Below, one piece after another: positions 2,791 to 44,361 of a stretch of DNA of 64,000 nucleotides (position 1 is the first letter of the stretch; each line of letters begins with the position of its first letter). A program made the translations under genes and the position numbers. The notes under the pieces were generated by a model that saw only the letters and a program-made list of their open reading frames with translations, made no database searches and was not told where the DNA came from. Source of the DNA: a virus (lineage: Duplodnaviria > Caudoviricetes); the IMG/VR virus record IMGVR_UViG_3300032285_001531; one strand, given 5' to 3'.

Positions 2791-2795
2791 TTTGA

Positions 2796-2801
2796 TAAAT
2801 A
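2796..2801 (+). promoter_or_regulatory. Late promoter (TAAATA)
   Basis: Intergenic gaTAAATA upstream of gp6; resembles the T4 late promoter TATAAATA. Confidence 0.6.
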
Positions 2802-2819
2802 TTATAAAGAGAACAAACT

Positions 2820-5800: not shown

Positions 5801-6176
5801 AGTAACATTTAAACCGTTATTTGGATCAAAAGCTGATCCAAAATTAAGAGCAACGGTAAAAGTAGTTCGTTCAAGTTTAACTACTGCAAGTGATAGTGAA
5901 ATACGTTCTGCAGTTATTACAGCAATGAATGATTATTTTAATATAGATAATTGGACATTCGGCGATACTTTTTATTTCAGTGAATTAAGTGCGTATCTTC
6001 ATTCTCAGTTAGGAGATTTGATTAGCTCTGCAATCTTAGTACCAAATGACCCAACATTAACATTTGGTGATTTGTATGAAATAAGAAGCGCACCTTATGA
6101 AATATTTGTTAATGGTGCACAACCAAACGACATATTAGTTATAGCAGCAATTACACCAAATGTATTACAAACTTAA
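2820..6176 (+). CDS. gp6: Baseplate wedge subunit, gp6-like
   Basis: The N-terminus YDYETLRKSFVDYL..ETFNDYIESSEFVALLDVIAF..NTRENFIDTAERRDSV..LA....YNPKR and the internal RMVNGEDY match the T4 gp6/baseplate-J family. Confidence 0.85.
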   Translation: MATSSRQSTIFGVNDWKAIYKTYSQANFQSYDYETLRKSFVDYLRTYYPETFNDYIESSEFVALLDVIAFMGQSVSFRDDLNTRENFIDTAERRDSVIKLANLVNYNPKRNSSGQGYLKISSIATTENVSDINGFNLAGIPILWNDPANPNWQEQFNSILNAALISSQKVGRPGNSAFIGPIKTDEYSIKIPNTVSPTIPFTATVGGVAMNFECVNVTSINESYLYELPPKPEGKFNILYRNDKLGFGSPNNGFFLYFKQGSLVPYEFTLNQQISNQVVPIGEIQGVNETDTWLYKIDPVSNELTQWQQVDNLFANTYLRTENSRKSVFSVKSRFNDQVSYIFGDGVFSEIPVGTFRSYVRSSNALQYTIDPFEIQGTTLSFSYISRVNRVETLTITVELTSPVNNAQSRESIADIKLKAPVQYYSQNRMVNGEDYNNFPYSLYNSIIKTKALNRTSIGVSRNFDLLDPTGKYSSTTSFSDDGALYLKDNDEFYDFVLSESTGQTLRIISNNLLKILSDRNLYQYYVLTATRYYPTVASGDGVVSWHLTSYNGSTVTGYFEAYGLPISVSTYNSYNMKYVGTSSLVRFIAPSGYYFKNNRLVSGIPPSAANTYMWVNVLNVVEDGFNGGVGNLYNGLGPISLSKNVPNGAIVDCIIPMLQNTLPTSIFQNITDYLNNGQSFSLYYVNNLPVTINRWFVGAFDRTDAYVYFESLGDFRYRITNKAISYYFGSVKNTRFSFDSEKIIFDPLSGTIAYDSVTALKTNTAPNTTNSIGVDTLLNIVGQTIEADGYPDDYAIEVSSQDAANNELIDDPDFFDKITGYQYGDTNSSYFVFVETTNDINNLTAHNITEPNAVVYAYGSLSEIENVKYEYPVYQIFYAYLENKFYKIYPDATTDTIVYVNSIDNYIAYPGKQQIQFQYKHLSNNTTRIDPSTTNIIDLYIVTLGYYTNYTNWLKDLTGTVIEPTRPTVEELSQSYSKINDYKMLTDSVVLNSVTFKPLFGSKADPKLRATVKVVRSSLTTASDSEIRSAVITAMNDYFNIDNWTFGDTFYFSELSAYLHSQLGDLISSAILVPNDPTLTFGDLYEIRSAPYEIFVNGAQPNDILVIAAITPNVLQT

Positions 6177-18100: not shown

Positions 18101-21100
18101 AATCCACCAACATTCGTGTCATCTGGAAATAACTATGGTGTTTACACAGGTGACGTAAACAGTGCCGGATTAGATTATGCACTCAGTGATACTATCATTA
18201 TATTGGGAACATCTTTAGGCGGTACTAGTCCAGCAAATGACTGTACTATTCTTGTAACTTCTGTAGGGGTAGACGGGTCAATATTAGGTATAGAGGTATC
18301 AGGTATACCACCAACAGTATATCAAGCTAGTTTACAGGGATCAACAGTTAAAATATTATCAGTAACAACTGAATCAGGAACAGGTGATACTCTGGTATCA
18401 TTAGACTATGCCAATAGCTCTTTATATCCAGCAGTTATTTCAGGAGCACAAGTATATTTTTATAAATCTACACATTTAACACCTTATGTTTATGATGATA
18501 CTATAAATGACGGGGCTGTGATTTGGATTTACAGTCCTAGATTATTTGGTTTATCAGTAAGTAATCAGTACTATATTGAAATCAAAGATGCAGGTATTAT
18601 TTACTCTACTGGAGATACTATTACTATTACCGGAGATTTATTGGGTGGAACTTCACCGGCTAATGATTTAATAATTACAATTACATATGCTGATCCTGGA
18701 ACAGGGGCAATAGTTTTTTATTCTTTAAATGGTGTTACTGTTGACTTGTATGAATTATATTTTGTCAAACCAATAAATTCTACTCAGGTTAAATTATACA
18801 CATCTTCTACATTATTATCACCGGTTATAGGATCAATTGATTTTACTACAAATGACGTTGTATTCTATCCTGAACCAATTGCAGGTAAACCTGGTTATAG
18901 TCAACCAATGATTTCGTTAGTTGCATACAATAATAAACTGTATCGTTGCATTGAAAGTAATACTGATACAGAGTTTGACTACGCTAAATGGGAATTATTA
19001 TACAGTGATGATCCTATGATTAATGCATTGGATAGAACATTAACATACTATCAGCCTACTGAAAGTATGCCAGGTAAAAACTTACCTTTATTAATGAGTG
19101 GGTTAGAATACCCAAATAGTACATATACTGGAAATAAGTTTGATCAGGCTATCACACTTGATGTTATACTAAATGACAAACCTTTCTATCCTAGCAATAT
19201 TGATGTTGCTGCAATTGTATGGGATGGAAATCAATTTGTAGCTGTTGGCAATACAACTAAGTATGTTATTCAAGAAGTTTTAAATGCTACCGCTTCTTTG
19301 AATGTAAACGTAGTATATGTAGAATTACCATACGCATATGACAGCATTAAAAAGGTTTCGGTATTTAATGCCACTAGAAATATAACGGTTAGCTCAGATA
19401 ACGTAGAATTAGTATTAACAGATACTTATCCTCAGTTAATATTTACTAATCAAGTATTAGAAGGTGACACATTAGTTATCACAACTTATTTTGGTGATAA
19501 TGAAGGTTACAGTATTGTTCTTCATAGCTCTAATGGAGTAGATTGGTCATTCAAAAAACTCAGTGATCAATTCTTAGATGTAAAAGATATTATATATTCA
19601 GGCTCGTTCTACGTGGTTGCAACAAACAATATCGATACTCCATTAATTATAAGTTATGATTCATATTCTTGGACTAGTGTTGGATCCTACACTGGTTATG
19701 ATATTTTTGAATATGACTCCGCAGGATTTGATACTGCTTCAGTTCAATCACCTAAGGATCAATTGAATAGTGTAGCATATTATAACAACCAGTATGTTTC
19801 TGTTGGTAAGAATATTCTATCAAGTATTAATGCCACTACATGGGATCAATCATTTAGTTTTGGATCAAGACTTACAAATACAATTAAATCTGTAAGCTAC
19901 ATAAACGGAACCTATCCAGCATTCAACGGATTTATTGCTGTTGGTTACGGTGATACTGTTACTGGAAATGAAAACACGCCTTACCCTAATATTGTACAAT
20001 ATACTAGAGTACTATTAAGCTATGATGGGATAAACTGGAACAATGTGTTCACTGGTCTACAATCTAAATGGTCGGTAGTATTTGGATCAGATACTACTAT
20101 CATAGCTGCTAGTGAAAATGGTGAAATATATTACAGTAACAATGGTTCTAACTGGGTACAAGCTACTATTAATGGAGCTCCGGTTACAGCTTCATTTAAT
20201 CATGGTATATTTGCAGCAAATAATTACATTCTTGTTGGTGATAAGGGCACAGTGGTATATAGTGCAGACGGTATAACTTGGACACAAGTTCCTTCAATAT
20301 CAAATAATAATTTACGTAAAATTTCATACAATGGCTTATATTCTAATGCTTCATATTTTATAGTAGTAGGTGATAAATCAACGATATTAAAGAGCGCCAA
20401 CTTACAAAATTGGGAAAATGAAACTTATATTAATACTGAGGATACTTTCTACGCTGTTAAAGGAGATCCTTTCTTATCAGGATATGGTCCGGAAGAATTA
20501 GTTCCTGGATTGATATATGATAATTTAAGTATGGTAGTAAGAAGCACACCTGGCTCATTATGGGATCCACTAGAATACAATAACTATGGTTTCTTTATGA
20601 AAGGAAAAACTGTAGTTTATGACGGTAATCAAGTAGTTGAGTTAGAGGACGGAACTACTCAATTCAGTTTTGCTGATTTAATGCTAAATCCTGCTCAAGT
20701 TGCAGTTTATACAATAGACGTTCAAAACTATGATCAGGCTACAAGAATATATGAAGTAAACTCTGTGGATAATCCTACTGCAGTAACAATCATAGAATCT
20801 ATCGACTGGGTTAATAAAACAGTAACTATTTCTTCTGGTTTTAACTACGGAGCATATAATATATATGTTGAAGTATATGGAGTAGGTGCAGGTAATCAAC
20901 AAGCCAAAGGTAGTTCAGATAGCGTACCTGTATATTATGATAGTAAGTTGGATGTAAGTTACATTGAAACTGATTACCCATATGATCCTAATGCATACTT
21001 AGTACCGTTAGTATATGTTAATGGAATTAAGAAAACATTTAATGTAGATTATGTGATAGTTCCTAGTTTCAATTCATCTATACAAATTCAATTTAATAGT

Positions 21101-27479: not shown

Positions 27480-27747
27480 ATTTAGACTCTACTATGATGA
27501 TAATGGTGATGTATTATTCTACACCTGTGAAAAACCAGAGGGTAAATATATCGTTATAGATTTAATGACATATCATGCTTGTAGACATGATGTTAAAGTA
27601 ATGGATGGGAAATTAGTTAGTAAGTCAATATTGGTATACATTTCTAAAATAGTTCATGGACATAAAGGAACATCCTGTCACAAAGATGATGTTAGCATAG
27701 TTTATGACAGCAGTGATTCAATTAAATGGCAATTAAAATATGAGTGA
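27460..27747 (+). CDS. Hypothetical protein
   Basis: 95-aa ORF overlapping both neighbours; the real start may be MQLPEF at 27466. Confidence 0.55.
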   Translation: MHMQLPEFRLYYDDNGDVLFYTCEKPEGKYIVIDLMTYHACRHDVKVMDGKLVSKSILVYISKIVHGHKGTSCHKDDVSIVYDSSDSIKWQLKYE

Positions 27748-28684
27748 CGTAATTGAAATAGCAGACCTAGATTGCATTTATCTAAGTTATGATGAACCAC
27801 AAAAAGAAGAATTTTGGGTAAAGATTCAAAACATGGTGCCATGGGCACGTAGAGTAGATGGAGTTAAAGGTAGTGATGCAGCACACAAAGCAGCCGCAGA
27901 AGCCAGCGATACTGAACGATTCATATTGATTGACGGTGACAACATTCCTAATTTTGATTTCTTTAATCTTAAATTAGATTTCACAAATAAAGACCCTAGT
28001 TACAAACAAGCACAGTATCGTTGGAGAGCAGTAAATGCTATCAATGGACTACGATACGGTAACGGTGGTATTAGTTCATGGACTAAGACTTATGTAGAGA
28101 ACATGCGCACACATGAAAATAGCGATGGAGGTGCATCGACCACTGTTGATTTTTGTTTAGACAGTAGCGATAACTTGTATTGGAGTATGTATGATTGTTA
28201 TTCAACTACATATCCTAACTACACACCATTCCAAGCATGGCGTGCCGGGTTTCGTGAAGGTGTAAAGATGTGTCTAGTAAATGGTGTAAAGCCTAGTGTT
28301 GATGAATTCAAGCAAAAAGTTGCAACTAGAAATATGGATAATCTTACTATATGGCATAATGTAGGTATGGATGTTGAGAACGGTAATTGGGCTATTCTAG
28401 GCGCACGTATGGGAACGTATATGACTATGATGACAGATTGGGATAATAATCAAGTTCAATGGTTCGATAACTTTATCACAATGTGGGAAGAATGTAAAGA
28501 TAAGGATCCTATACGTGAATCAACATTATTTGGTGCAGCACTTATGGATAAATTAGGGTTACCTACAGCTACGTTGAGTAAAGAACAAAGTAAATTTTTC
28601 AAACGACACTATATGGCAGACAAACACAACTTGGGGCCATTAGTACGTGAGATGGACGTGATACGAAAGATAGAAGGTTGGTAA
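27740..28684 (+). CDS. Glycosyltransferase-like protein
   Basis: DCIYLSYDEP..WARRVDGVKGSDAAHKAAA..FILIDGDN has a GT-A-like core with DxD; homologous to the C-terminal domain of 31020-32567 (W[R/K]TAFRE/WRAGFRE motif). Confidence 0.5.
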   Translation: MSDVIEIADLDCIYLSYDEPQKEEFWVKIQNMVPWARRVDGVKGSDAAHKAAAEASDTERFILIDGDNIPNFDFFNLKLDFTNKDPSYKQAQYRWRAVNAINGLRYGNGGISSWTKTYVENMRTHENSDGGASTTVDFCLDSSDNLYWSMYDCYSTTYPNYTPFQAWRAGFREGVKMCLVNGVKPSVDEFKQKVATRNMDNLTIWHNVGMDVENGNWAILGARMGTYMTMMTDWDNNQVQWFDNFITMWEECKDKDPIRESTLFGAALMDKLGLPTATLSKEQSKFFKRHYMADKHNLGPLVREMDVIRKIEGW

Positions 28685-30024
28685 TGAAAATAAAAACTAT
28701 ATTCAAAAATTTATATAGAAAAGTAAGAGTAAAGCTAATAAGGATACAAAAAACAGTGATAGATAAACCTGACTTATCTAATAAATTATGTGCAGTGCCT
28801 TGGATGCACTTAAATTTTGAACCTAATGGCAAAGTAGTTCCTTGCTGTCTTACATCAACTTATAATTATTTTGCAGGAGATTTAACAAAGCAAAGCATTA
28901 ATGATATTTGGAATAGCGGGAATATGAAAGATTTGCGCATTCAAATGATGAACAATGTAGAGCCTGAAATCTGCAGAAAATGTTATGATAAAGAAAGAGT
29001 AACAGGAGAAAGTGGAAGAACATATCACAATCTTGAGTTCAAAAGTGTATTAAAACAGATACCAGTTATTACTAAGTCTGATGGTACTTGTACTAAGATG
29101 GAATTAAAATATTGGGATTTTAGATTTAGTAATTTATGTAATCTGAAGTGTCGCAGTTGTGGTCCGCGCTATAGTTCTGCGTGGGTGCCTGATGCTAAGA
29201 AATTAGGATATGCCGATCAGGAAAAAGTATGGAATATTGAATCAGTAGGTACTACTCCTAATTATGATTTTCTTAAAGAGCAAGTAGAGTATGTTGAGAA
29301 AATATATTTTGCAGGTGGTGAACCTTTATTGATGCCTGAGCATTGGCAGATACTAGACTTATTGGTACAAAATAGAAGATTCGATGTAAAATTATCATAC
29401 AATACAAACTGCACGACTTTAACATACGGTAAAAAGAATATCGTAGATTATTGGGGGCAATGGGAGTTTGGTAAGATAGAAGTATGGCCAAGTTTAGATG
29501 AAATAGATAATCGTGCTGAACTTGTGCGTAGCGGTACTGATTGGAAAAAAGTAGAAGAAAATCTAAAAGAACTCAATGAACTAGACAATATAATTGTGCG
29601 ACCTGGAATAACAGTAGGAGTGTTCAATGTGTTTAGATTGCCGCAAATAATTAATAGACTAGTAGAACTAAATGTTATAAATGAACGACATTGGTATAAA
29701 AACTTTTTTATTAATTTGTTAGAAGATCCAAAGCACTATCATGTTCATGTGCTGCCGGATGAATTTAGACAAAAAACGATAACAGATTTAAACAATTTTG
29801 TCAATGATTATAATAAAAAGTATAGTACTGATATTAGTCCTCACTTCAAACAGATATTGTTTGAATTGACTAGACCTTACAACAGCAAAGCAGCTAAAGA
29901 TTTTTTACGAGTTACTGGAGAAGTTGATAGGATACGCAATGAAGATACATTTGCTACCATTCCAGAATTACATGTTATTAGAATGAAATATCCAAACATA
30001 TATGAAACTGCAAAGAATATATAG
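28684..30024 (+). CDS. Radical SAM protein with an N-terminal SPASM/twitch-like Cys cluster
   Basis: CxxxCxxC motif CNLKCRSC, GGEP, N-terminal CAVPW..PCC..C..C; start placed at the TAATG overlap at 28684. Confidence 0.85.
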   Translation: MKIKTIFKNLYRKVRVKLIRIQKTVIDKPDLSNKLCAVPWMHLNFEPNGKVVPCCLTSTYNYFAGDLTKQSINDIWNSGNMKDLRIQMMNNVEPEICRKCYDKERVTGESGRTYHNLEFKSVLKQIPVITKSDGTCTKMELKYWDFRFSNLCNLKCRSCGPRYSSAWVPDAKKLGYADQEKVWNIESVGTTPNYDFLKEQVEYVEKIYFAGGEPLLMPEHWQILDLLVQNRRFDVKLSYNTNCTTLTYGKKNIVDYWGQWEFGKIEVWPSLDEIDNRAELVRSGTDWKKVEENLKELNELDNIIVRPGITVGVFNVFRLPQIINRLVELNVINERHWYKNFFINLLEDPKHYHVHVLPDEFRQKTITDLNNFVNDYNKKYSTDISPHFKQILFELTRPYNSKAAKDFLRVTGEVDRIRNEDTFATIPELHVIRMKYPNIYETAKNI

Positions 30025-31030
30025 AAACGAAAATCACAATCAGTCATTTTTTGTAGTAGACTGGATGCTACATGATCGTTGCACATATGATTGTAGCTAT
30101 TGTCCTCCCGGTAATAAACAGGGCATTGACACATGGCTAAATCTTTCTACGTTAAAAGAGTTTTGCGATGAATTAGAAAAACACGCAGCAAACGTTGATC
30201 CAAACACTAAGATACTTGCTAATTTCTCTGGCGGGGAACCAACAGTTTGGAAACACTTCCCTGAATTATTAGATGCATTAACACAACGAGGATGGTTAAT
30301 TTCAATCAGTACTAATGGTAGTAGAAGTATAAACTGGTGGAAAGAGAATGCACACAAGCTTACAAGAATAAACTTAAGCTATCATACTGAATCTGTTGTT
30401 GATGATGAATTTTTAGAAAAAGTAAGGGTGTGTGAAGAATACTCACAAACAAGTGTTAATATTATGCTTAATCCTGATCCTAAATTATTTGGTAAAGCTG
30501 TTAATTTTAACAAAAGAGTGTTGGCTGAAACATCTAAAGCAGGAGTGCATAATCATCAAATACAGCACAATTTTGGTATGCAAACTATTATGGTTCCGTA
30601 TTACACTAAAGCACAAAAAGAAATAATGTCAACATTACCAGATAGATATCCTGCTGTACATCCTGATCAAGTTCATATACGTCATAACTATTTTCACAGC
30701 ACAATATATGGTGTTAAGAAAAGTACTGATGGCAGCACACTTATTGATAAACAACTAGTTAATTTTGAAAACTGGATTTGCTCCGCTGGTATTGAAGGAG
30801 TTTTTGTTGATTCTGCAGGCAGAGTAAGTAGAGGTACTTGTAGAATGGGAGGAGAACTAGGTAATATACAAGAACCAAATAAAATAAATTGGCCTACTAC
30901 TCCTGTATTGTGTAAAAAGGATTGGTGCGGTTGTATAACAGATATATTAAAAAGTAAACACGATACTAAGAAATTTACACTAACTGAAAGAATAAAAGAT
31001 TTTATTATGGATGTAAAGAATGGACGCTGA
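30002..31030 (+). CDS. Radical SAM protein with a C-terminal twitch-like domain
   Basis: CTYDCSYC, FSGGEPT, STNGS; C-terminal C..G..C...C..WC.C. Confidence 0.85.
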   Translation: MKLQRIYRNENHNQSFFVVDWMLHDRCTYDCSYCPPGNKQGIDTWLNLSTLKEFCDELEKHAANVDPNTKILANFSGGEPTVWKHFPELLDALTQRGWLISISTNGSRSINWWKENAHKLTRINLSYHTESVVDDEFLEKVRVCEEYSQTSVNIMLNPDPKLFGKAVNFNKRVLAETSKAGVHNHQIQHNFGMQTIMVPYYTKAQKEIMSTLPDRYPAVHPDQVHIRHNYFHSTIYGVKKSTDGSTLIDKQLVNFENWICSAGIEGVFVDSAGRVSRGTCRMGGELGNIQEPNKINWPTTPVLCKKDWCGCITDILKSKHDTKKFTLTERIKDFIMDVKNGR

Positions 31031-32567
31031 ATTAAAAAGAAGAATGGAACTTTGGAAACAAGGTACATGGGAAATTCCTGAAGATTTAGATACTAGTAAT
31101 TTCGATTTTACTTGGAGACCATTTCATTTTGATAGACCATATATACATCAATTTGGTACACAGCATCAAAAGACAGGTGGCCCTAGATTTATTGTTCCTG
31201 ATAATGAAGGAGTAAAGTATCAGGATTATCAAATAGCAATTAAGTTACCTAACAAAAATAATCGGTGTTGGAGACCATTAGTACCTAATGCTGAGATTGA
31301 TTTTAGTTGGCATCCTGATGATAACGATCCTCCCTTTATACATGTGTTCGGCAATCAATGGTATGATGGTGTAGATATGCCCACGTATCAATATCGTGTA
31401 GCCGGAGCTACTGAAAAGAAGTATGAACATAATCTAAAAGCAAAGTTATTACCTAATCCTTCAAATAGAGGGTTTAGACCATTAAAAATTATAAGTGACT
31501 TTGATTATAGTTGGGTACCGCACCCCAAAGATCCTCCCTTTATATACGTGTTTGGTAATCAATGGTATGATGCTACTGAGATGCCAACACTTGAGTATAG
31601 AGTTAAAGATGCTGTAACTAGAAAGTTTGTAACACATCCTAAAGCTACTCTTAAAATTGAAAAAGTAAAGCTAGAAGATTGTTTACACCATATGGTAATA
31701 GATACAAAATTCAATACAAAGTATATTCACTTTGGTAGTGCAACAGTTGATTATTCAGAAGTAATACCAGAGGATGATTTGTATATACACATCATTGATA
31801 ATGTAGAAGCTATTGTACCTAAAGAAGCTAAATCATTCATATATTCAACACTGTTAGATTATCCTCATATAAAATATCATACATGCGGAATCAAAGCAGT
31901 GCCATTAGACATTATATTTTTAAGTAATGGTGAAGAAGGAGCTGAAGAAAACTATCAGCACTTATTAAGATTGACAAAAAACTTACCTAATAATGTTATT
32001 AAAATAGAGGGTGTTAAGGGTCGTGTTGCTAGTCAACATGAAGCTGCAAAACAAAGTTCAACTGCTTGGTATTTTTTAATTAATGCTAAATTGCGTGTTG
32101 ATGACAATTTTGATTTTAGTTGGCAACCTGATTATTTAGATACAAGTAAGCACTATATTTTTAGAGCAAAAAATATTGTTAATGGATTAGAATATGGTCA
32201 TATGGCTATAGTAGCGAACAATAAAAAAATCACATTAGAGACATTAGGAACAGGTCTTGACTTTACATTAGATGGAAAGTTTGAGATTGTTGATATTAAT
32301 TCAGGAGTAGGGGTATTCAATACCAGTGAGTGGGATACTTGGCGTACTGCATTTAGAGAAGCGATTAAACTTAGACATTCAAATGATCCGGATTCTATAA
32401 AAAGATTACAAACATGGCTTACTGTAGCAGAAGGTGAGTTTGCCCAAATATCTATGCAGGGTGCCGCTGATGCTGTAAAGTATTATGAATCAGTAGAAGG
32501 TGACTTTCAGAAGTTAAAACTTAGTTACGATTGGGATTGGCTAAAAGAGAGATTCCAACATAAATAA
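31020..32567 (+). CDS. Repeat-containing glycosyltransferase-like protein
   Basis: Repeated FD[F/Y]SW.P...DPP.I.VFGNQW modules; the C-terminal domain (DIIFLSNGE..GVKGRVASQHEAA..WRTAFRE) is homologous to 27740-28684. Confidence 0.5.
   Translation: MDAELKRRMELWKQGTWEIPEDLDTSNFDFTWRPFHFDRPYIHQFGTQHQKTGGPRFIVPDNEGVKYQDYQIAIKLPNKNNRCWRPLVPNAEIDFSWHPDDNDPPFIHVFGNQWYDGVDMPTYQYRVAGATEKKYEHNLKAKLLPNPSNRGFRPLKIISDFDYSWVPHPKDPPFIYVFGNQWYDATEMPTLEYRVKDAVTRKFVTHPKATLKIEKVKLEDCLHHMVIDTKFNTKYIHFGSATVDYSEVIPEDDLYIHIIDNVEAIVPKEAKSFIYSTLLDYPHIKYHTCGIKAVPLDIIFLSNGEEGAEENYQHLLRLTKNLPNNVIKIEGVKGRVASQHEAAKQSSTAWYFLINAKLRVDDNFDFSWQPDYLDTSKHYIFRAKNIVNGLEYGHMAIVANNKKITLETLGTGLDFTLDGKFEIVDINSGVGVFNTSEWDTWRTAFREAIKLRHSNDPDSIKRLQTWLTVAEGEFAQISMQGAADAVKYYESVEGDFQKLKLSYDWDWLKERFQHK
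32561..32566 (+). promoter_or_regulatory. Late promoter (TAAATA), probably leaderless; could also drive the tmRNA
   Basis: TAAATA-agtgt-ATG with no SD. Confidence 0.5.
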
Positions 32568-32571
32568 GTGT

Positions 32572-32742
32572 ATGACACTTATTTGGGTATTACTAGTATT
32601 TGTAACTAATGACGGAGAATGGCGTGAATGGAACTCCTTTACCCGTGAGAGTGAGTGTTTGGAAGTAGCAAGAGTAATCACACATCACCGTGAAGATAGT
32701 ATTCAAGCTATGTGTGTAGCAAAACCAGTTATTAGTTCTTAA
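32572..32742 (+). CDS. 56-aa small protein absent from the ORF track (MTLIWVLLVFVTNDGEWREWNSFTRESECLEVARVITHHREDSIQAMCVAKPVISS)
   Basis: Translated by hand; hydrophobic N-terminus and two Cys; fills the gap between the late promoter and the tmRNA. Confidence 0.6.
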   Translation: MTLIWVLLVFVTNDGEWREWNSFTRESECLEVARVITHHREDSIQAMCVAKPVISS

Positions 32743-33000
32743 AGAATTGTTGTAATTCCTTCAAAGTGAAGGCATTCTGGACGCGGGTTCGACTCCCGCC
32801 TGGTCCACCATAAGAGCATACTGTGTTTTTATGATGGGCTAGACATGGTTTCGACAGGGTGAGATAATAGAGAAGGCAACACAGTAGGCGATGACTGTAA
32901 ATCAAGCAAAATTAGTATCTGCAAACGATGATACATATCTATTAGCCGCAAACGGCTAATTAGCGGGGCAACTATGCCTTGTTACCAAAAATAGTAATAG
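32743..33000 (+). ncRNA. ssrA: Circularly permuted (two-piece) tmRNA
   Basis: The 3' tRNA-like half (GCGGG-TTCGACT-CCCGC T-arm, CTGGTCC-A-CCA ending at 32810) precedes the 5' half GGGCTAG at 32836. The acceptor stem carries the G3-U70 Ala identity pair; CAGGGTG/CATTCTG form helix 2; tag ORF 32921-32959 is preceded by the conserved UA at -5/-4. Outer ends are approximate. Confidence 0.9.
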
Positions 33001-33017
33001 GAGCTTCGGCTCCTATT
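32996..33017 (+). terminator. Rho-independent terminator after the tmRNA
   Basis: AATAGGAGC-TTCG-GCTCCTATT followed by TATTT. Confidence 0.75.
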
Positions 33018-33024
33018 TATTTGG

Positions 33025-33050
33025 ATAAAAGGCTCTTCGGAGCCTTTTAT
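33025..33050. terminator. Bidirectional terminator
   Basis: ATAAAAGGCTC-TTCG-GAGCCTTTTAT at the junction of convergent transcription units. Confidence 0.8.
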
Positions 33051-33970
33051 TCTATGAATTCTATTTTTTCTAGGTTATTAAAGATGTAGTTTTGTAGTGG
33101 CATAGATGTATGTGCTACAAAGCCAATTGGAAATTCTAATGGTAGTGCATCAATCACTAACTTATGACCTTCTACCCAATGATTAAATTCTGCAGATTGA
33201 TAAATCTTTTTTCTGTTTACATTAGTATCAATTAAAAATCCACCATGCGAACCTAATCTACCAGTACAATCTTTTGCTAATAAATCATCATGGTCATAGA
33301 AACTCTGCATTATTGATTTGCCTAACATTGAACTATTCAATAAAACTAAGTTTTCTTCTGTACGTTCCATAAAAGAATAATTTAGTTTCTGCTCATCATC
33401 AGCGAACTCTAACCAAATGGGCATATCTACATTGGGTAAAGCACCAATTGCATATATAGGATAGTTATCATCAACAAATTTAGAATTTAATAAATTAGAA
33501 GTAAAGTTCTCTAGAATACATATTGAGTTATTGATAGGTTGTAAGATATTGTACCATGTTTTGTAACTCATATCTTTAGGGAATATGAATTTAGGATCAA
33601 AAGGATTAAGTACTGCATCTTTCTGTAGATACCATAACATATTGTACGTGTAGAATCTATTAATTTTGTTTAGTGTTTGTTGCTTATAATCAAATTCTTC
33701 AGGTATATCAAAGGGCATAATATATCCCAATGATTCTAATTGTCTCATGCTACGTGCTACTGTTTTCCAACTATTCTTATACGTGAATGTTTCAAACACT
33801 GTTCTTCTGCGTATTGATTTATCGTAGGATGCTTCTAAATGACGTATCCCGTATGAATCATAAATGGGTTTAAAATGTTTAAACCACTTGACCACTACAG
33901 GATCGTTATACAGCTTTATAATTATATGTTTTTTAGTTAAAAAAGATTTGTACGTTAATATCAGTTGCAT
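33047..33970 (-). CDS. Hypothetical protein
   Basis: 307-aa ORF; no motif recognised. Confidence 0.65.
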   Translation of the reverse strand: MQLILTYKSFLTKKHIIIKLYNDPVVVKWFKHFKPIYDSYGIRHLEASYDKSIRRRTVFETFTYKNSWKTVARSMRQLESLGYIMPFDIPEEFDYKQQTLNKINRFYTYNMLWYLQKDAVLNPFDPKFIFPKDMSYKTWYNILQPINNSICILENFTSNLLNSKFVDDNYPIYAIGALPNVDMPIWLEFADDEQKLNYSFMERTEENLVLLNSSMLGKSIMQSFYDHDDLLAKDCTGRLGSHGGFLIDTNVNRKKIYQSAEFNHWVEGHKLVIDALPLEFPIGFVAHTSMPLQNYIFNNLEKIEFIE

Positions 33971-36422: not shown

Positions 36423-37547
36423 TTAGAAGCGATGCTGAATGCCAACTGCAAATGCACGTTGACTTAAAGCACTGTCACCAAAGTTTGAGCCACCACCATC
36501 TGGTACCCAACGATCATAAACAGTAAATGGTGCTGCTGCGTTTGCATTGCGGTTAGCAACTACATAGTCAGCGAACACTTCTGTACGCTTGCTGAATGCA
36601 TAAACTGCACCAACTGCATACATCTTAACATCATCTTTACCTGCTGTTACTTGGTCTTGTACATTGTAGTAACCACCGTTAACACTTACACGATCGGTAA
36701 CTTTGTACTTCGCACCAGCAAACCAAGTACGTGCATCAGTCTTACCGTCAGCTTTCGATGAGCTTGCACGGAATGCTGTTAGTGTATTTGGATTGTTAGT
36801 GATAACATAACCAGCGTTAACTAGTAAAGCATCAGTAACATTATACTTTGCTGCAACTAAGTCGATCTTTTCATCAACGTTAGCATTGGTTAAACGAACT
36901 TCTTCGTGTGTATATGCTACTTCTACTGGACCTGCTGTATACTTACCACCAATGTTGTAGCTGCTCTTTGAAGTAGTATCATTTAACTGATTACCAAAAC
37001 TATAAGAACCATCAACAACTAAGCCACCAAAGCTTGGTGATGTATAGCGAACCATGTTATCAAAACGTGATACGCCTGAACCACTATAGAAACCAGCATA
37101 ACGTGCGATTGGCTTTAAGCCACCGAAGTTCCAGTTGCCACGTGAATCAAATTCATCAAGTACGTTGTACAAGAAGTTCTTGCCACGACCTAATTGAATC
37201 TGACCAAATGAACCAGCTAGGGCTACATTTGCTTCACGATCAAATACTGTGGTTGAACCTGCACCGCCACTGCCTGAATCTTTACCAATTCCGCCAGTAC
37301 GTAGACTCAAGTTACTTTCTAAGTTAAACTTAGCTGTCATACCGTCGCCTAGGTCTTCTACACCTTTGAAGCCTAACCGATTGCTGCTGTGTAACTGTTC
37401 ACCGAAACCAGTGAAGTCACTGTTAGCTGAAGTGAAACCACTACCGCTAACTACACCTGCACCCAACAAACCATAAACGGTAACGTTCTGTGCCTGTGCA
37501 ACACCAGCCATAAGCATAAGTGCTGCTACTAATTTTGTTACTTTCAT
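36423..37547 (-). CDS. Gram-negative trimeric porin (betaproteobacterial Omp32-like)
   Basis: Signal peptide ending AQA; NVTVYG, RLGFKGVEDLGDGMTAKFNLE, FDREANVAL.G.FG.I.LGR, N.V.Y.SP.FGG, Y.FSKRT; C-terminal GIQHRF; ATGA-coupled to pstS. Confidence 0.9.
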   Translation of the reverse strand: MKVTKLVAALMLMAGVAQAQNVTVYGLLGAGVVSGSGFTSANSDFTGFGEQLHSSNRLGFKGVEDLGDGMTAKFNLESNLSLRTGGIGKDSGSGGAGSTTVFDREANVALAGSFGQIQLGRGKNFLYNVLDEFDSRGNWNFGGLKPIARYAGFYSGSGVSRFDNMVRYTSPSFGGLVVDGSYSFGNQLNDTTSKSSYNIGGKYTAGPVEVAYTHEEVRLTNANVDEKIDLVAAKYNVTDALLVNAGYVITNNPNTLTAFRASSSKADGKTDARTWFAGAKYKVTDRVSVNGGYYNVQDQVTAGKDDVKMYAVGAVYAFSKRTEVFADYVVANRNANAAAPFTVYDRWVPDGGGSNFGDSALSQRAFAVGIQHRF

Positions 37548-38551
37548 TTTACTTCTCCTAAGTTAAATTTAGACCATACATTCTTAACTATGGCAACTAC
37601 CTCTTTTGGTAGAGGAACATAGTCAAGTTCTACAGCCATCTTTTCTCCATTGTTAAAAGACCAATTGAAAAATTTTAAAACAGCTAATCCGACCGCAGGA
37701 TCGGCTTGCTGCTTATGCATGATTATATACGATGCACCTGTAATGGGCCAAGCATTCTGGTTAGATTGGTCTGTTAATATAACAGCCATACCAGGTGAAT
37801 TAGCCCAATCAGCACCTATTGCTGCTGCTTTGAATGTATCGTCATCAGGTTGAATCCATTTGCCTGCTTTGTTCTTTACTTGAACATGTGCAATTTTATT
37901 CTTTTTGGCATATGCGTATTCTACATAGCCAATTGCACCTTGCAGTCTTTGTGCGTTTGCAGCAACACCTTCGTTACCTTTGCCGCCTACGCCTGTTGGC
38001 CATTTAACTGCTGTACCTGAACCAACCTTTTCTTTCCATTCAGGAACTGTTTTGCTTAACCAGTCAGTGAACAAAAATGTTGTGCCTGAACCATCAGCAC
38101 GATGTAGTACAGTGATATCCATATCAGGAAACTTAACTGTTGGGTTTAGTTCTTTGATACGAGGATCAGTCCACTTAGTGATTTTGCCTAAGTATATAGC
38201 AGCAATTACATCTGCTGTTAATTTTATTTGCCCAGGCTGAATGCCAACTAGATTTACAACTGGAACTACTCCACCGATAATAGCTGGGAATTGAACTAAA
38301 CCTTCTTTGTCTAGTTCTTCTTGTTTCAACGGCATATCACTTGCACCAAAATCTACTGTTTTAGCTTTGATTTGTTTAATACCACCACCTGAACCAATTG
38401 ATTGATAATTAAGACCTATCCCTGTTTGGGCTTTATATGCTTCTGCCCATTTAGAATAGATTGGATAGGGGAATGTTGCTCCTGCTCCTGTGATGTCTGC
38501 TGCAAATGACGTACTTGACAGAATTACAAGTACTGCGAATAATTTTTTCAC
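37544..38551 (-). CDS. pstS: Phosphate ABC transporter substrate-binding protein PstS
   Basis: Signal peptide; ITGAGATFPYP.Y.KW, YQSIGSGGG, DFGASD, RADGSGTT, GGKGNEGV, WPITG; GTG start with AAGGAG RBS. Confidence 0.95.
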   Translation of the reverse strand: MKKLFAVLVILSSTSFAADITGAGATFPYPIYSKWAEAYKAQTGIGLNYQSIGSGGGIKQIKAKTVDFGASDMPLKQEELDKEGLVQFPAIIGGVVPVVNLVGIQPGQIKLTADVIAAIYLGKITKWTDPRIKELNPTVKFPDMDITVLHRADGSGTTFLFTDWLSKTVPEWKEKVGSGTAVKWPTGVGGKGNEGVAANAQRLQGAIGYVEYAYAKKNKIAHVQVKNKAGKWIQPDDDTFKAAAIGADWANSPGMAVILTDQSNQNAWPITGASYIIMHKQQADPAVGLAVLKFFNWSFNNGEKMAVELDYVPLPKEVVAIVKNVWSKFNLGEVK

Positions 38552-38658: not shown

Positions 38659-38913
38659 ATGGAAATAAAAGCTGCATTAGACTGGCAAAAAGTCGGAACT
38701 AACCTACGTAAGCAACTATCCTCAGTAAGCTATAACCCTGATTTAAAACAGATGTTTAAGAATATTGAAGAAATGGTTTCTGAGTTAAGTAAGTCCGAAG
38801 TTGTGGCCAGACAAACAAAAAGAACGTATCACTTAGAAAGTCAAGTACAGAAGATAAACAAAGCAATCAATCATTTGGAAAAATTGATATTGATTGCTCA
38901 GGTCATGAATTAA
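38659..38913 (+). CDS. Hypothetical protein (helical/coiled-coil)
   Basis: 84-aa ORF; plus-strand TAAATA at 38590-38595; its stop overlaps the stop of the convergent gene (TTAA). Confidence 0.6.
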   Translation: MEIKAALDWQKVGTNLRKQLSSVSYNPDLKQMFKNIEEMVSELSKSEVVARQTKRTYHLESQVQKINKAINHLEKLILIAQVMN

Positions 38914-39416
38914 CCTAACGGGTTAGTTGGCCAAACAACGTCTTGTAAGCTAGTATAAGTTTTGGTGATGTCACGTAATTGTTGACGGTATTCTAACACC
39001 TCTTTAAGTTTGGCATCAGTTAGTGTAGTGGTCAATCCTAACGCTTTTTCTTCATTGTGTCTAGTAAATACCCAATCGGTGTTTATTAATAAGCCATCTC
39101 TATATTGTGCTAGTGTTGGTTCTGATGGCATAATAGCAATCATATCAGTTAATAATGCTTCTTTGAAATTATCCAAATGACTCATTATCCATTGAATTTC
39201 TTCACTGTGTTCATCATGCTTTTGTGTGTTGTCACTGTACACGATTGTGAAAATATTTCTTGCTGGCTCTACACTAATCGCTACTAAATTATCTTTGTAC
39301 GGAAACTTAGTTAGGTCATAAAACTCTGCTTCCGAACTAAATGCATGTTCAATGTTATCAATTCTTGCAGAATAGTTTTGGTTTAAAAAATCAAGTGTAA
39401 TATAATTCTGTTTCAT
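38910..39416 (-). CDS. Tail fibre assembly chaperone-like protein
   Basis: C-terminal L..YRQQLRDIT....VVWPTNP is typical of phage tail assembly chaperones; follows the fibre genes. Confidence 0.65.
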   Translation of the reverse strand: MKQNYITLDFLNQNYSARIDNIEHAFSSEAEFYDLTKFPYKDNLVAISVEPARNIFTIVYSDNTQKHDEHSEEIQWIMSHLDNFKEALLTDMIAIMPSEPTLAQYRDGLLINTDWVFTRHNEEKALGLTTTLTDAKLKEVLEYRQQLRDITKTYTSLQDVVWPTNPLG

Positions 39417-39419
39417 GGT

Positions 39420-40565
39420 TTATCCTTTATACTGTATAAATGCAATTTTAATTGTACCTGGATCATAGTTCACTCCGCTAAATGAAGGAGTTACTGTATG
39501 AAAATGTGATGCACTAAATGTGGCATGCGGTACACTTGCTAATGTTGCGGGTGTTGCTCCTGGAATCCCTGATCCTTTGTGACTGTGATTCCACGTATTA
39601 TTTGTAACGCTACCTGTTGCGGTAATATTGTTTGCTGAACCAGCAGTAGTGTTATATGCTAATTGACTCCCTACACCCACAAAGTAATTAACCATATTTA
39701 CGGTTCCGTTATTGCCGTCACATACATACCATCCTGCAGGTAAACTTGTTAATGATCCTGAATACATTAGAATACAATTTAGATTCAAATAAGTTTCTGC
39801 AGTACTTCCCCATGCTGATAATAGTTTGGTTAGAATTGATGCAGCCGCAATAGTCAATGACAAGTTATGTGAATGAGTAGTAGTAGTTACATACGGATAA
39901 TTAGTAGATGTTACTGTTGCAGGATTATATGCATAATTAGTATCAATATGACTATGTGTTCCGCCTGTTGCAGTCGATCTAAGATTAGTTACAGGAGTAC
40001 TAGAAGTAGCACCATTAAACAATCCACCACGTATTGGTAAATTGTTAGGGGTGATTTGAGTAAATGTTGATGCAGGTTGATTCTGTGAAAACACGATACA
40101 ATCGGTAGGTAGTCTAGTTGTTTCTGCGGTACATTGTATTATAATATATGTTTGATAATTAGCCACACCAGGTACTGTTATTGTAGATAAATCGAGTGAG
40201 GTTACTGTATGATTATGAGAACCTGAGGTACCTAAATTAAACCATCCACCAGGAAAAGCAATTCCTACTGGATTATATGCAGGACCAAATGATGTTTGTG
40301 TAGGAAAGTGAGCACCTGCACTATTAATAGAAACATTCAAACTACCTGATAATGATGCAGTTGTAGTAGTTTCAATATCAACTTGCGTAGCAGTACCTTT
40401 TATATAATGACCGTCTGCTGTACCATATCTAGTCCAACCAGGCAAACTTGTAAATGTATTATTGTAAAATACCAATGCACCAATTGGTATTACCGGAGGT
40501 GGTCCTGGTAACGGGGGATAAAAACCCATTGTTGAAAAAGGAGAAGCAGTTGATAGTCTAGGCAT
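39420..40565 (-). CDS. Tail-collar/distal fibre protein with HxH motifs
   Basis: Two collar-like segments (PIGALVFY..LPGW; ILMYSG..LPAGWYVCDGNNGT) and five HxH motifs. Confidence 0.65.
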   Translation of the reverse strand: MPRLSTASPFSTMGFYPPLPGPPPVIPIGALVFYNNTFTSLPGWTRYGTADGHYIKGTATQVDIETTTTASLSGSLNVSINSAGAHFPTQTSFGPAYNPVGIAFPGGWFNLGTSGSHNHTVTSLDLSTITVPGVANYQTYIIIQCTAETTRLPTDCIVFSQNQPASTFTQITPNNLPIRGGLFNGATSSTPVTNLRSTATGGTHSHIDTNYAYNPATVTSTNYPYVTTTTHSHNLSLTIAAASILTKLLSAWGSTAETYLNLNCILMYSGSLTSLPAGWYVCDGNNGTVNMVNYFVGVGSQLAYNTTAGSANNITATGSVTNNTWNHSHKGSGIPGATPATLASVPHATFSASHFHTVTPSFSGVNYDPGTIKIAFIQYKG

Positions 40566-40566
40566 T

Positions 40567-43446
40567 TTATCCGCCGTAACTTGCTAATTGACCTAAAACT
40601 TTCCAGTCTGAAGTTGTTCGTATTAATGTGAAACCAACAACGTCTATTGCATTAGCAGTACCTACAGGGATTGTATTACTTAACCAATTAACTGTTTGAA
40701 ACACACCGTCAATCTGAAATTGATTTGCGATGTATGCACTAATTCCCTGCTCAATAATGATAGGCACAACAATAGTTCTATTGCCTGTAGTAGGAACATT
40801 AGTTAAGTTAACAGTGAAGTTATCCGCTACACTCGTGTGATAGTAAATAGCACCTGTTTGGAAATTATGTGTAACAGTTCCGGTAGCACTTGTTTTCTGA
40901 TTCATTATATCAGTTGTTTGCTGGAACGTAGCTAAGTTAGATAGATTTATTCCACCTAAATTACTAGTACCGGTTATACTTAAGTTACCGCCCGATATAG
41001 CATTAGCACTTGTAAAGTTCGCTCCGCTAACAGCACCAGTAATATTTGCGTATCCCTGTATGTTTGCACCAGTAGATGTAATGGTCATTACTAATGCACT
41101 AGAACTTGTAAATCTAATATTATTATTTGCTTGAACTACTACATTACTATTACCATTAATGATTTGACTGTTTGCAGTAACACTGACATTATACAATCCT
41201 GAACCATCACCTTGGAAAAAGTTAGCAGTAGCTAAGTTACCTAAGTTAGCATTTGCTGCTCTTAAGTTACCGAATACGTTAGCATTGCCTGAAGTTTGTA
41301 TTTGTGTAAATATACCAATATTAGGTGTATTGCCACCTATTGCACCATTGATATTTCCGAATACATTTGCGTTTACGTTATTAGCGGTAATGTTACCGGT
41401 AACAGTAAGGCTTAATAAGTTACCTACGCTTGTTATATTTGGTTGACTAACTGTAGTTAAAGTACCTGCAATATAACCCGCATTAAGATTAGCTACATTG
41501 GTAACACCACTCTTTAATACAGAGAACTTAGATATACCACCAACTTGTAAATCAATTAATAATGATCCTGCACTACTATTGGTGTCTATTATATTTTCTT
41601 TGATTCCAGTAAATGCAACACTTGCATTATTCCATGTTTGTGTAATTTGTATTGGGCTAGTAGCAGTTAGTGTTCCGGAACCAACACTTAATCCAGTTAA
41701 TGTTCCTAAGGTAGTAATATTACTTTGAGTAGCATTAACTACATTTCCTACGTAGTTTGCATAGTTAGCATTAGTAGAATTAGTTACTGTGCCGGCATAT
41801 GTTGCATAGTTTGCATTTGCAACTTCACTTACATTAGCACCATTGATACTGAATAAACTGCTGCCGTTACCTTGGAAGAAATTTGCAGTTGCTATATTAC
41901 CTAAATTGGCATTAGCTGAATTAATATTTCCAGCTACATTGAATAGATTAGATACCCTATTGAATGTAAGACCACTTGTAGCACCTAATACACCGTCATT
42001 ATTAAACAATACAAATGTATTAGCACCTGGCAAATTAATATTGCCGTTTACATTACCAGTTAAACTACCAACAAAGTAGTTAGCAGTTACGGTGTTGCCT
42101 AATGTTGCATTACCAGATGTAATAGTACCACTTACACTTAGACTAGTTAATGTCCCGACTGAAGTTATATTTGGTTGTGCTGCTGTTGTTACTGTACCAG
42201 CAGTTGTTGCTGAAGTAGCAGTAGTTGCAGTAGTTGCTGCGCCTGCGGTGACTGCATATGTTGCATTGGCTACTGTGCCAGCAACATTAGGTCCTTGTAT
42301 GTTACTTAAATTATTACCACTACCGACAAAGAAATTAGCATTTGCTGTGTTACCCAGTATAGCGTTACCGGAGGTAACTGTGCCACTAATACTTAAACTA
42401 GTTAGTATACCTACTGAAGTAATGTTAGGTTGTGCTGCAGTCACTACTGTTCCAGCAGTAGTTGCATTGCCTGAAAGATTCGCAGTAATTACATTAGCAG
42501 CAAAGCTATTAGCAGCATCACGTATTACAACTGTATCCGGTGTGTTAGTAGCAGCTGGTTCATAACCTTGTAATAATTCTGCATTTAAATTACCGATTTG
42601 TGTGTTGCTACTAACAACAAATGGTGCTGTGCCTGTAGACAGTGTGCTAATGAATTGCCCAGCTGTTTTAAAATTACCGCTTGTAAGTAAATTACCACTT
42701 CCTGAGGTTACAGAAACAGTTCCGATACTGATACCATTAGAAGAAAGATATAGTTTATCAAATCGTTGTGACGGTGAACCTAAGTCATATGTATTGCTAG
42801 AGTTAGGTAATATATCACCTACAACATTTCCACTTAAACTCAGTACAGTTAATGCACCTAAACTTGTTATATTGGGCTGTGAGCTGGATGTTAACACACC
42901 AGTAAAGTAATTAGCTGTCGCTGTGTTACCTAAACTAGCATTTGCTGCAAACACGCCCATTGATGCATTTAAGTTGCCTGTGTCAATATTACCTGACACT
43001 GCTAAACCAAGCAATGTACCTACGTTAGTGATACCTGGTTGACTAGATGCTACAATAGCACCTGAGATATTAGCCGCTACTAATGTGCTATTACCTGTAA
43101 AGAATTTTAAATTAGGATTGGCAGCGAAAACACCACCTGTATTAAACTGTACTTCAGTTGAGTTACCCGCAGCAGCCTGAGCAGATTGTGCTACCCAATC
43201 TAAGTTTCCGGTTCCGTCTGTTTTAAGTACAAAGTCAGCGGATCCGCCCGTAATTCTGACATTACCCACATTGCCCAAAGAAGTGTTACCTGTAACACTA
43301 AGATTAGGGGTTTGTAAGAACGGTATATTGATGCCTGCAGGGACGAACCCAATTCTGCTCCACGCATTATCTGTAGAACTGTATTGGTATAAAATACCAT
43401 TGATTTCGACTTGTTGCCCATTTGTGGGCGTTGCTGGCCAACTCAT
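40567..43446 (-). CDS. Long tail-fibre-like protein
   Basis: Asn/Ala/Gly/Thr-rich with QPNITSVG.L..L and ANANYA.YAG repeats; modules shared with 57561-61577. Confidence 0.7.
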   Translation of the reverse strand: MSWPATPTNGQQVEINGILYQYSSTDNAWSRIGFVPAGINIPFLQTPNLSVTGNTSLGNVGNVRITGGSADFVLKTDGTGNLDWVAQSAQAAAGNSTEVQFNTGGVFAANPNLKFFTGNSTLVAANISGAIVASSQPGITNVGTLLGLAVSGNIDTGNLNASMGVFAANASLGNTATANYFTGVLTSSSQPNITSLGALTVLSLSGNVVGDILPNSSNTYDLGSPSQRFDKLYLSSNGISIGTVSVTSGSGNLLTSGNFKTAGQFISTLSTGTAPFVVSSNTQIGNLNAELLQGYEPAATNTPDTVVIRDAANSFAANVITANLSGNATTAGTVVTAAQPNITSVGILTSLSISGTVTSGNAILGNTANANFFVGSGNNLSNIQGPNVAGTVANATYAVTAGAATTATTATSATTAGTVTTAAQPNITSVGTLTSLSVSGTITSGNATLGNTVTANYFVGSLTGNVNGNINLPGANTFVLFNNDGVLGATSGLTFNRVSNLFNVAGNINSANANLGNIATANFFQGNGSSLFSINGANVSEVANANYATYAGTVTNSTNANYANYVGNVVNATQSNITTLGTLTGLSVGSGTLTATSPIQITQTWNNASVAFTGIKENIIDTNSSAGSLLIDLQVGGISKFSVLKSGVTNVANLNAGYIAGTLTTVSQPNITSVGNLLSLTVTGNITANNVNANVFGNINGAIGGNTPNIGIFTQIQTSGNANVFGNLRAANANLGNLATANFFQGDGSGLYNVSVTANSQIINGNSNVVVQANNNIRFTSSSALVMTITSTGANIQGYANITGAVSGANFTSANAISGGNLSITGTSNLGGINLSNLATFQQTTDIMNQKTSATGTVTHNFQTGAIYYHTSVADNFTVNLTNVPTTGNRTIVVPIIIEQGISAYIANQFQIDGVFQTVNWLSNTIPVGTANAIDVVGFTLIRTTSDWKVLGQLASYGG

Positions 43447-43475: not shown

Positions 43476-43502
43476 GTACTATATTTTAGTTATTAGTTTT
43501 GG

Positions 43503-43567
43503 TTGACAACGGATCATTTTGGGCATATAATCTTTTACATCAACTAACAACACAGGAGCTAAAAATG
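43503..43567 (+). promoter_or_regulatory. Early sigma70 promoter-RBS cassette, copy 1
   Basis: TTGACA(43503)-17 nt-TATAAT(43526)-CTTTTACATCAACTAACAACACAGGAGCTAAAA-ATG. Confidence 0.9.
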
Positions 43568-43837: not shown

Positions 43838-43902
43838 TTGACAGTCAATCATTTTGGGCATATAATTATACACATACACTGATAAACAAGGAGCTACAAA
43901 TG
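43838..43902 (+). promoter_or_regulatory. Early sigma70 promoter-RBS cassette, copy 2
   Basis: TTGACA(43838)-GTCAATCATTTTGGGCA-TATAAT(43861); AAGGAGCT RBS. Confidence 0.9.
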
Positions 43903-44292
43903 GCATACATATCACAAGAAAAGAAAGCAAAAATCGCCCCAGCAGTTAAAGCTATTCTCAAAAAGTACAATGTAAAAGGTTCATTAGCTGTTCGTAATCA
44001 GATGACATTGGTACTCAATCTTAAACAAGGCTCTATTGATTTTGTAGGCAACTTCAATGCTGTAACCGGTGGCTCATTGCATGGTAATTATGTAGAATAC
44101 GTACAAGTTAATCCTTACTGGTATCATGATCATTTTGATGGCAAAGCTAAAGCATTTCTGTCAGAAGTATTGGCTGCAATGAATGATGGTAATCATGATA
44201 ACAGCAATGCTATGATTGATTACTTTGATGTGGGCTGGTATGTTGATGTTAACATTGGTAAATGGAACAAATCTTACACATTAGTCAAATAA
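43900..44292 (+). CDS. Early hypothetical protein
   Basis: 130 aa with its own promoter and RBS; ends DYFDVGWYVDVNIGKWNK. Confidence 0.75.
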   Translation: MAYISQEKKAKIAPAVKAILKKYNVKGSLAVRNQMTLVLNLKQGSIDFVGNFNAVTGGSLHGNYVEYVQVNPYWYHDHFDGKAKAFLSEVLAAMNDGNHDNSNAMIDYFDVGWYVDVNIGKWNKSYTLVK

Positions 44293-44296
44293 TTAG

Positions 44297-44361
44297 TTGA
44301 CAGTCAATCGTTTTGGGCATATAATCTTTTACATCAACTAACAACACAGGAGCTAAAAATG
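44297..44361 (+). promoter_or_regulatory. Early sigma70 promoter-RBS cassette, copy 3
   Basis: TTGACA(44297)-GTCAATCGTTTTGGGCA-TATAAT(44320); leader identical to copy 1 through the ATG. Confidence 0.9.

Follow-up and report, generated by a model that had tools for sequence, protein, structure and literature searches.

A complete circularly permuted tmRNA gene of the beta type was identified at positions 32745-33019 on the plus strand of the window, that is, the whole 64,000-nt stretch of viral DNA analysed in this study. ARAGORN, run on the whole window, reported one gene only, at 32718-33050, and classed it as a permuted tmRNA with the tag ANDDTYLLAANG. An Rfam search of the entire 64 kb at gathering thresholds gave overlapping matches to RF01850 (beta_tmRNA) and RF04321 (tmRNA_permuted) and nothing else. 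The RF01850 match extended over 32703-33019 with 181.3 bits against a gathering score of 84 (E 1.2e-56, model positions 1-331 of 331), and the RF04321 match, whose alignment begins at 32748, reached 134 bits against a gathering score of 47 (E 4.7e-26, model positions 1-213 of 213). RF01850 was the top-scoring model of its clan, with the beta model beating the alpha model. The strength of the matches in both ARAGORN and Rfam is far beyond chance, and the gene qualifies under the Rfam criteria as a full permuted tmRNA of the beta subtype.

The original prediction had described a tmRNA of the permuted, two-piece type at this site, in which the T arm and the CCA end come ahead of the 5′ GGGCTAG, with a 25-nt intervening hairpin between them, an acceptor stem with G3-U70, a helix 2 and a tag ORF. 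Reading of the sequence bore out this reversed order and all of these parts (Table 1), and ARAGORN and the Rfam permuted models, both of which were run, agreed on the class. With regard to the proposed span of 32743-33000, the gene proved real, but its 3′ boundary had been set too early and lies at about 33019, because the gene extends to the terminator hairpin at 32996-33017. The expectation that such a gene would be missed or mis-called by standard tools did not hold, as ARAGORN and two Rfam models call it cleanly.

The 7-bp acceptor stem consists of the pairs G1:C72, G2:C71, G3:U70, C4:G69, U5:G68 (a wobble), A6:U67 and G7:C66, and the alanine identity elements are present in the form of G3:U70 (G32838 with U32804) and A73. 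The 25-nt spacer, which is presumably removed on maturation, is among the shortest in 87 related genes (18 to 171 nt), and its 9-bp fold is weak (-4.9 kcal/mol, z -2.6), 5 of 200 shuffled sequences folding equally well. When the two predicted pieces were cofolded, the acceptor stem, the T arm and the start of helix 2 were recovered; the energy gain was no better than with shuffled acceptor pieces, and therefore only the recovered pairs are used as support. Toward the other end of the gene, the region 32960-33020 folds with -25 kcal/mol (z -4.85). The terminator-like hairpin within the coding piece corresponds to the terminal hairpin of RF01850 and likely marks the 3′ end of that piece; a simple scanner put it on the minus strand. 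The second hairpin, next to it, was found by folding to be highly stable (-17.5 kcal/mol, z -6.2, 0 of 200 shuffles equally good) and is a probable bidirectional terminator. A promoter scan gave 3 sites against 3.5 expected by chance, none of them convincing for the tmRNA itself.

Table 1. Features of the tmRNA gene and of its phage surroundings, in window coordinates.
Feature	Position	Strand	Basis or remark
Baseplate hub-like protein	7-2304		
gp25	2318-2767		
gp6-like wedge subunit	2820-6176		phrog_10646, 836 bits
5,463-codon single ORF	6188-22579	+	directly after the baseplate genes
Plus-strand operon just upstream of tmRNA	27740-32742	+	
Acceptor piece	32745-32810	+	5′ end approximate; RF04321 and RF01850 alignments, sequence, cofold
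Helix 2, 5′ strand	about 32748-32779	+	in acceptor piece
T arm	32783-32799	+	sequence; recovered by cofold
3′ acceptor strand CUGGUCC	32800-32806	+	sequence
Discriminator A73	32807	+	sequence
Encoded CCA	32808-32810	+	sequence
Intervening spacer, 25 nt, no ORF	32811-32835	+	sequence, fold
Coding piece	32836-33019	+	RF01850 full-length alignment, ARAGORN, folds
5′ acceptor strand GGGCUAG	32836-32842	+	sequence
D-loop analogue UGGUUUCGAC	32846-32855	+	in coding piece
Helix 2, 3′ strand	to 32881	+	in coding piece
Small hairpin	32881-32897	+	in coding piece
Tag frame, GCA resume codon, 12 codons	32921-32959	+	ARAGORN coding part 204-242 of gene
Tag stop UAA	32957-32959	+	sequence
3′ hairpin region	32961-32993	+	in coding piece
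Intrinsic-terminator-like hairpin, 9 bp, UUCG loop, then U-rich tail	32996-33022 (stem 32996-33017)	+	fold
Second hairpin, 13 bp, UUCG loop	33023-33052		between tmRNA and convergent gene 33047-33970 (-)
Tail and tail-fibre assembly proteins	38910-40565		
T4-type large terminase	61626-63176		
Virion structural protein	63206 onward		

The genes adjoining the tmRNA look cellular (radical SAM/SPASM enzymes, a GT2 glycosyltransferase, a metallophosphoesterase, a Gram-negative porin and PstS), and for this reason the viral origin of the window was put to the test. Structural genes were found on both sides, with the baseplate genes at one end, tail genes spanning 38910-43446, and the terminase and a virion structural protein at the other end. 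The terminase showed 51% identity to that of the Pseudomonas jumbo phage PA5oct and its relatives, and about 51-54% to those of Sinorhizobium phage Phosso and Agrobacterium phage Atu_ph07. The G+C content is even across the window (31-38%), and a contig of 349,679 bp carries a gene identical to the window porin. The viral origin is clear, and the window belongs to a freshwater-type jumbo myophage of about 350 kb. The structural genes on both sides, the even G+C content and the 349,679-bp contig place the tmRNA gene some 30 kb inside this phage, where it sits in an island of auxiliary genes. A megablast search of 20 kb against 50,697 phage records gave no match, and hence no close relative at the DNA level.

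The operon just upstream encodes a 314-aa protein of unknown function, a SPASM/radical SAM enzyme (448 aa), a radical SAM enzyme (342 aa), a 515-aa unknown protein and a 56-codon ORF, which stops 5 nt ahead of the start of the tmRNA model. The layout of this operon recalls peptide-modification clusters, and the block is conserved in the sister phage L203. The single ORF that follows the baseplate genes gave no Pfam match in either half and presumably encodes a giant baseplate or fibre protein. Two repeat pairs were also observed, one of 69 nt (43499-43567 and 44293-44361, 91% identity) flanking a 130-aa ORF at 43900-44292, and the other of 147 nt (42064-42210 and 42319-42465, 78% identity) inside a 959-aa gene of the tail region.

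A search of IMG/VR with a degenerate pattern for the permuted tRNA-like domain (TLD) yielded 49 contigs with the beta-like permuted form, all 49 of which were called permuted by ARAGORN. An exact 33-mer covering helix 2 and the next hairpin was found in at least 120 metagenome contigs, some of them 130-341 kb long, and a pattern specific to the acceptor stem gave no match in the metagenomes. The gene thus belongs to a large lineage on phage contigs, in which the tRNA-like stems covary and the alanine identity elements are fixed. Parsing of the stems of 87 related genes gave 24 distinct combinations of T stem and acceptor stem, and G1:C72, G2:C71, G3:U70, A73 and CCA were invariant in all 24; GC, CG, AU and UA replace one another at acceptor pairs 4-6 and T-stem pairs 2-3. 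Such fixed alanine identity in covarying stems is the pattern expected where AlaRS must still charge the RNA. The neighbouring genes were also found beside tmRNAs in other viral contigs, namely the GATase-like gene (60-63% protein identity), GT2 (68-73%), the metallophosphoesterase (74-81%) and PstS (about 51%), which indicates that the tmRNA is a stable resident of this phage group.

In the sister phage L203, the porin is 92% identical to that of the window and the flanking DNA 74-89% identical, and a tmRNA gene occupies the same place. This tmRNA is far more diverged from the window copy than its flanking genes are, and its spacer (5950-6030) is about 80 nt long instead of 25 and holds a 15-codon mini-ORF from ATG to TAG. 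The window gene itself resembles different groups in different parts: its spacer is identical to that of four metagenome loci (L129, L160, L172 and L190; tag ANDNHYAMAA), its acceptor stem matches another metagenome group (tag ANDERYALAA), and its 3′ hairpin (32961-32995) resembles a third (L008 and L121). This mosaic appearance, together with the diverged copy in L203, suggests that parts of the gene may have been exchanged between phages.

In 185,579 species genomes, the lineage-specific pattern matched only three contigs, JBDNIA010000294.1, CAZCDW010000126.1 and CALMJT010000228.1, which have about 39% G+C and come from MAGs labelled Crocinitomicaceae, Bifidobacterium and Alteromonadales. 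A separate contig of the Bifidobacterium MAG, with 57% G+C, carries that MAG's own standard tmRNA. Most simply, the three contigs are probably mis-binned phage DNA. The exact TLD pattern gave 0 matches in genome contigs, and when 400 genomes sampled from the class to which one such MAG belongs were searched by BLAST, only T-arm matches came up, the 19 best loci being standard one-piece tmRNAs. An RF01850 scan of 151 such genomes, a weak negative because it was limited to 10 candidates per genome, gave no match apart from the MAG contig. With these narrow patterns and limited genome samples, no close cellular donor of the lineage was found.

The proteolysis tag of a tmRNA normally ends in hydrophobic residues followed by Ala-Ala. 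The window tag frame runs from GCA 32921 to UAA 32959 and encodes a tag ending in -LLAANG, that is, in -AANG rather than in a hydrophobic residue and Ala-Ala. Among 84 distinct tags of the lineage, which are 8-33 aa long, 60 end in AA, 15 in AV, 4 in LA and 1, that of the window, in NG. The alignments revealed how this ending differs from those of the relatives, which terminate directly after ...LAA: where they have ...GCN GCN UAA, the window has GCC GCA AAC GGC UAA. In the RF01850 alignment, four nucleotides including the consensus stop codon are absent from the window gene, which lengthens the tag by two residues and gives it its NG end. The last six tag codons fold into a hairpin of 7 perfect base pairs (32942-32948 with 32953-32959, loop CAAA), and the new UAA stop sits on the 3′ arm of this hairpin. 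An exact pattern for the hairpin gave 0 matches in IMG/VR. An assembly slip can be dismissed, because the independent scaffold L204, which has another sample accession, matches the window at 100% identity along 21,125 bp, tmRNA and tag included. The sister phage L203 has the canonical tag ANDDVYALAA, and by this sequence comparison the change in the window tag is derived.

Tags in which AA is followed by two more residues were seen in two other viral contigs (L022, -VAANA, and L041, -VAAYA). Many metagenome loci of the lineage (among L082-L201) have very long tags of 21-33 aa, which fall into conserved families. One family has tags of about 29 aa with ...GEVTVSGK..KFSAR... that end in FAV or LAV, and another has ...FKFFEVDF... 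and ends in IAA or LAA. The long tags differ by what look like conservative substitutions, a sign that the peptide itself may be under selection.

ClpX recognises a free C-terminal Ala-Ala, and an -AANG end should be a poor degron. Since the tag ends in -AANG and not in -LAA, ClpXP would probably degrade the rescued products poorly. Laboratory DD tag variants uncouple ribosome rescue from ClpXP-type proteolysis, and rescue without degradation is a fair hypothesis for the window phage as well; drift is equally compatible with what is seen in one lineage, and the uniqueness of -NG among the 84 tags means that the ending could reflect relaxed selection on the tag instead of adaptation. A more far-reaching reading would take -LLAANG as an adaptive, naturally non-degradable tag and the beta-like permuted tmRNA as a phage-maintained, phage-tuned lineage. 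According to that reading, deletion of the stop and its shift onto the 3′ arm of the hairpin may uncouple ribosome rescue from ClpXP-type proteolysis, the lineage may move among phages whose hosts may use either tmRNA form, and the tag, whatever its length and ending, may evolve for the purposes of the phage and not for those of the host. We regard this combined reading as doubtful.

The absence of smpB from the window, which had been noted at the outset, was confirmed by Pfam scans of about 40 ORFs, none of which matches SmpB. SmpB was likewise absent from 10 tmRNA-bearing IMG/VR phage contigs, two of them at least 94% complete; these contigs include one of 331,776 bp (estimated 94% complete) and a genome of 169,777 bp with terminal repeats. 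In the control for this search, SmpB was found in 10 of 14 genomes. Given its absence from the window and the 10 contigs and its detection in the controls, it is a reasonable inference that the tmRNA depends on the SmpB of the host.

Taken together, the gene likely produces a working two-piece tmRNA that would be served by host RNase P, tRNA 3′-end enzymes, AlaRS and SmpB and would recycle ribosomes during infection. The RNA would be made as part of a single precursor transcript, probably by read-through from the upstream plus-strand operon, as is proposed because no convincing promoter of its own was found, and the transcript would end at the hairpin 32996-33017. Cleavage by host RNase P would fall immediately 5′ of G32836, and the host tRNA 3′-end enzymes would trim the acceptor piece to the CCA at 32810, thereby releasing the spacer, and the two pieces would stay joined through the acceptor stem and helix 2. 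Host AlaRS would then charge the RNA through G3:U70 and A73, after which host SmpB and EF-Tu would bring it to stalled ribosomes on broken mRNAs; such mRNAs should abound when host nucleic acids are being degraded by the phage. With GCA 32921 as the point of resumption and UAA 32957 as the stop, translation of the tag would free the ribosome for phage protein synthesis. In the most speculative step of this scheme, the benefit to the phage would be ribosome recycling and not proteolysis.

Three other explanations of the gene were weighed against a working tmRNA. The RNA might act as a decoy or modulator that binds host SmpB or stalled ribosomes through its tRNA-like domain and damps or redirects host trans-translation, tagging being irrelevant. 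Such a role was proposed for the TLD-only RNA of mycobacteriophage DS6A, and strong inhibition of tmRNA is reported for a molecule that barely exceeds the TLD in size, possibly because it titrates SmpB (PMC4131195). The window tag without a canonical ending and the wide variation of the lineage tags in length (8-33 aa) and ending (AA, AV, LA or NG) would also suit a decoy. However, a pure decoy would need neither the mRNA-like part nor the tag, whereas the window gene has kept the whole mRNA-like part, as seen in the full-length beta_tmRNA score, as well as a resume codon for Ala and an open frame of 12 codons, closed in frame by a stop within a perfect hairpin. The tags of the relatives are tidy, too, with AA at the end of 60 of the 84. 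We therefore consider a decoy role unlikely.

It might also be supposed that the ancestor of the gene was functional and that the window copy is now a neutral or decaying passenger, with the lost stop as the first sign of decay. In keeping with this, -NG is found in no other of the 84 tags, the sister phage keeps -YALAA, and acceptor pair 5:68 is U:G here as opposed to C:G in the relatives of the L009 group (about 88% identical). But no stem is broken, the score of 181 bits falls within the 161-196 bits of relatives with canonical tags, and the same sequence recurs in the independent scaffold L204. A new in-frame stop is moreover present two codons further on, in the perfect 7-bp hairpin, so that the loss looks compensated, and decay is in our view quite improbable. 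The ssrA gene is a frequent integration site of temperate elements, which often carry pieces of it (PMC9004378; PMC4383910), and one might ask whether the gene is not a phage gene at all but host chromosome beside a prophage, or the leftover of an integration into the host ssrA. Yet the gene is complete and no fragment, it lies about 30 kb inside a block that reaches from the baseplate genes (7-6176) through the tail genes to the terminase, the G+C content shows no step, and Pfam scans of the window ORFs gave no integrase match. The rarity of the lineage pattern in species genomes, where it was confined to three low-GC contigs in MAGs assigned to unrelated phyla, points the same way. An origin outside the phage is extremely improbable.

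With a working, phage-borne tmRNA as the preferred reading, the window adds one more well-defined example of a described class. Beta-type permuted tmRNAs are common in large freshwater-type phages and occur in some cultured phages, where annotators have overlooked them. Knowledge of them is useful for annotation and for host prediction, since a phage tmRNA could be misread as a host signal. What remains of interest is the tag variant and how large the unannotated, phage-borne beta-type lineage is. The tag variant is a natural experiment, simple and testable, on which function of tmRNA is needed by phages, rescue, degradation or both.

The view that a two-piece tmRNA is unusual in a phage is contradicted by published phage cases as well as by the 49 IMG/VR contigs and at least 120 metagenome contigs described above. 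Buchholz et al. (2022; PMC9004378) reported the two-piece ssrA of the OM43 phage Melnitz and found tmRNA genes in 402 of 18,146 phage genomes, with 133 unique structures; 53 phage structures were permuted, and 50 of these 53 came from aquatic phages. The tmRNA database (PMC11915505) holds 79 unique bacteriophage sequences. The beta-type two-piece tmRNA belongs to the betaproteobacterial lineage (Sharkady and Williams, 2004, as cited in PMC9004378). Compared with the bacterial beta type (RF01850), the window gene is alike in gene order, in helix 2, in the small hairpin with its AGGCGA-type loop, in the ANDx start of the tag, in the 3′ hairpin with the CCUUGUUACC loop and in the terminal hairpin. 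It differs in being phage-borne and not the resident ssrA of a betaproteobacterial chromosome.

A close published parallel in phage biology is offered by Melnitz and the pelagimyophages, which are marine and T4-like (PMC9004378). They share with the window phage a complete permuted ssrA in a large aquatic T4-like myophage without integrase, and in both cases host factors are presumed to be used to keep translation going. On the other hand, the tmRNAs of Melnitz and the pelagimyophages were reported as alpha-type, that of Melnitz with a glutamine riboswitch (PMC9004378), whereas the window gene is beta-type, and no glutamine (glnA-type) riboswitch was detected in 31500-33500 at E up to 1. The genomes differ as well, with 141 kb for the Melnitz-like phage and about 350 kb and a PA5oct/Atu_ph07-like terminase for the window phage. 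Al-Shayeb et al. (2020; PMC7162821) reported tmRNAs and SmpB in huge phages. Like the window phage, they have jumbo or huge genomes with a tmRNA among translation-related genes; the SmpB that is included there was found neither in the window nor in the 10 related contigs, and permuted and standard tmRNA forms are not separated in the survey text consulted.

Beta-like permuted tmRNAs were also found in four cultured phages, Xanthomonas phage XacN1 (region 36,950-37,600), Pseudomonas phage PA_L9, Alcaligenes phage vB_Af_QDWS595 and Acinetobacter phage BUCT628, with RF01850 scores of 94-108 bits and matches to both Rfam models. The GenBank records of all four show no tmRNA feature at the site, and thus one part of the concern about standard tools was justified: the tools detect the gene, but it is often left unannotated. 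In PA_L9, a hypothetical CDS overlaps the start of the tmRNA gene; in vB_Af_QDWS595, a run of about 10 tRNA matches surrounds the tmRNA, with no features in the stretch shown. These phages have the same gene form as the window and tags of the ANDx or ANAx kind. Their resemblance to the window is limited to 79-90% identity across 42-76 nt of the tRNA-like domain, and they belong to unrelated groups (Schitoviridae, Obolenskvirus, Samunavirus and a jumbo phage). Unlike the window tag, their tags end in the canonical LAA or AAA. The window gene is therefore an ordinary further example of a published class, and its one distinctive trait is the -LLAANG tag.
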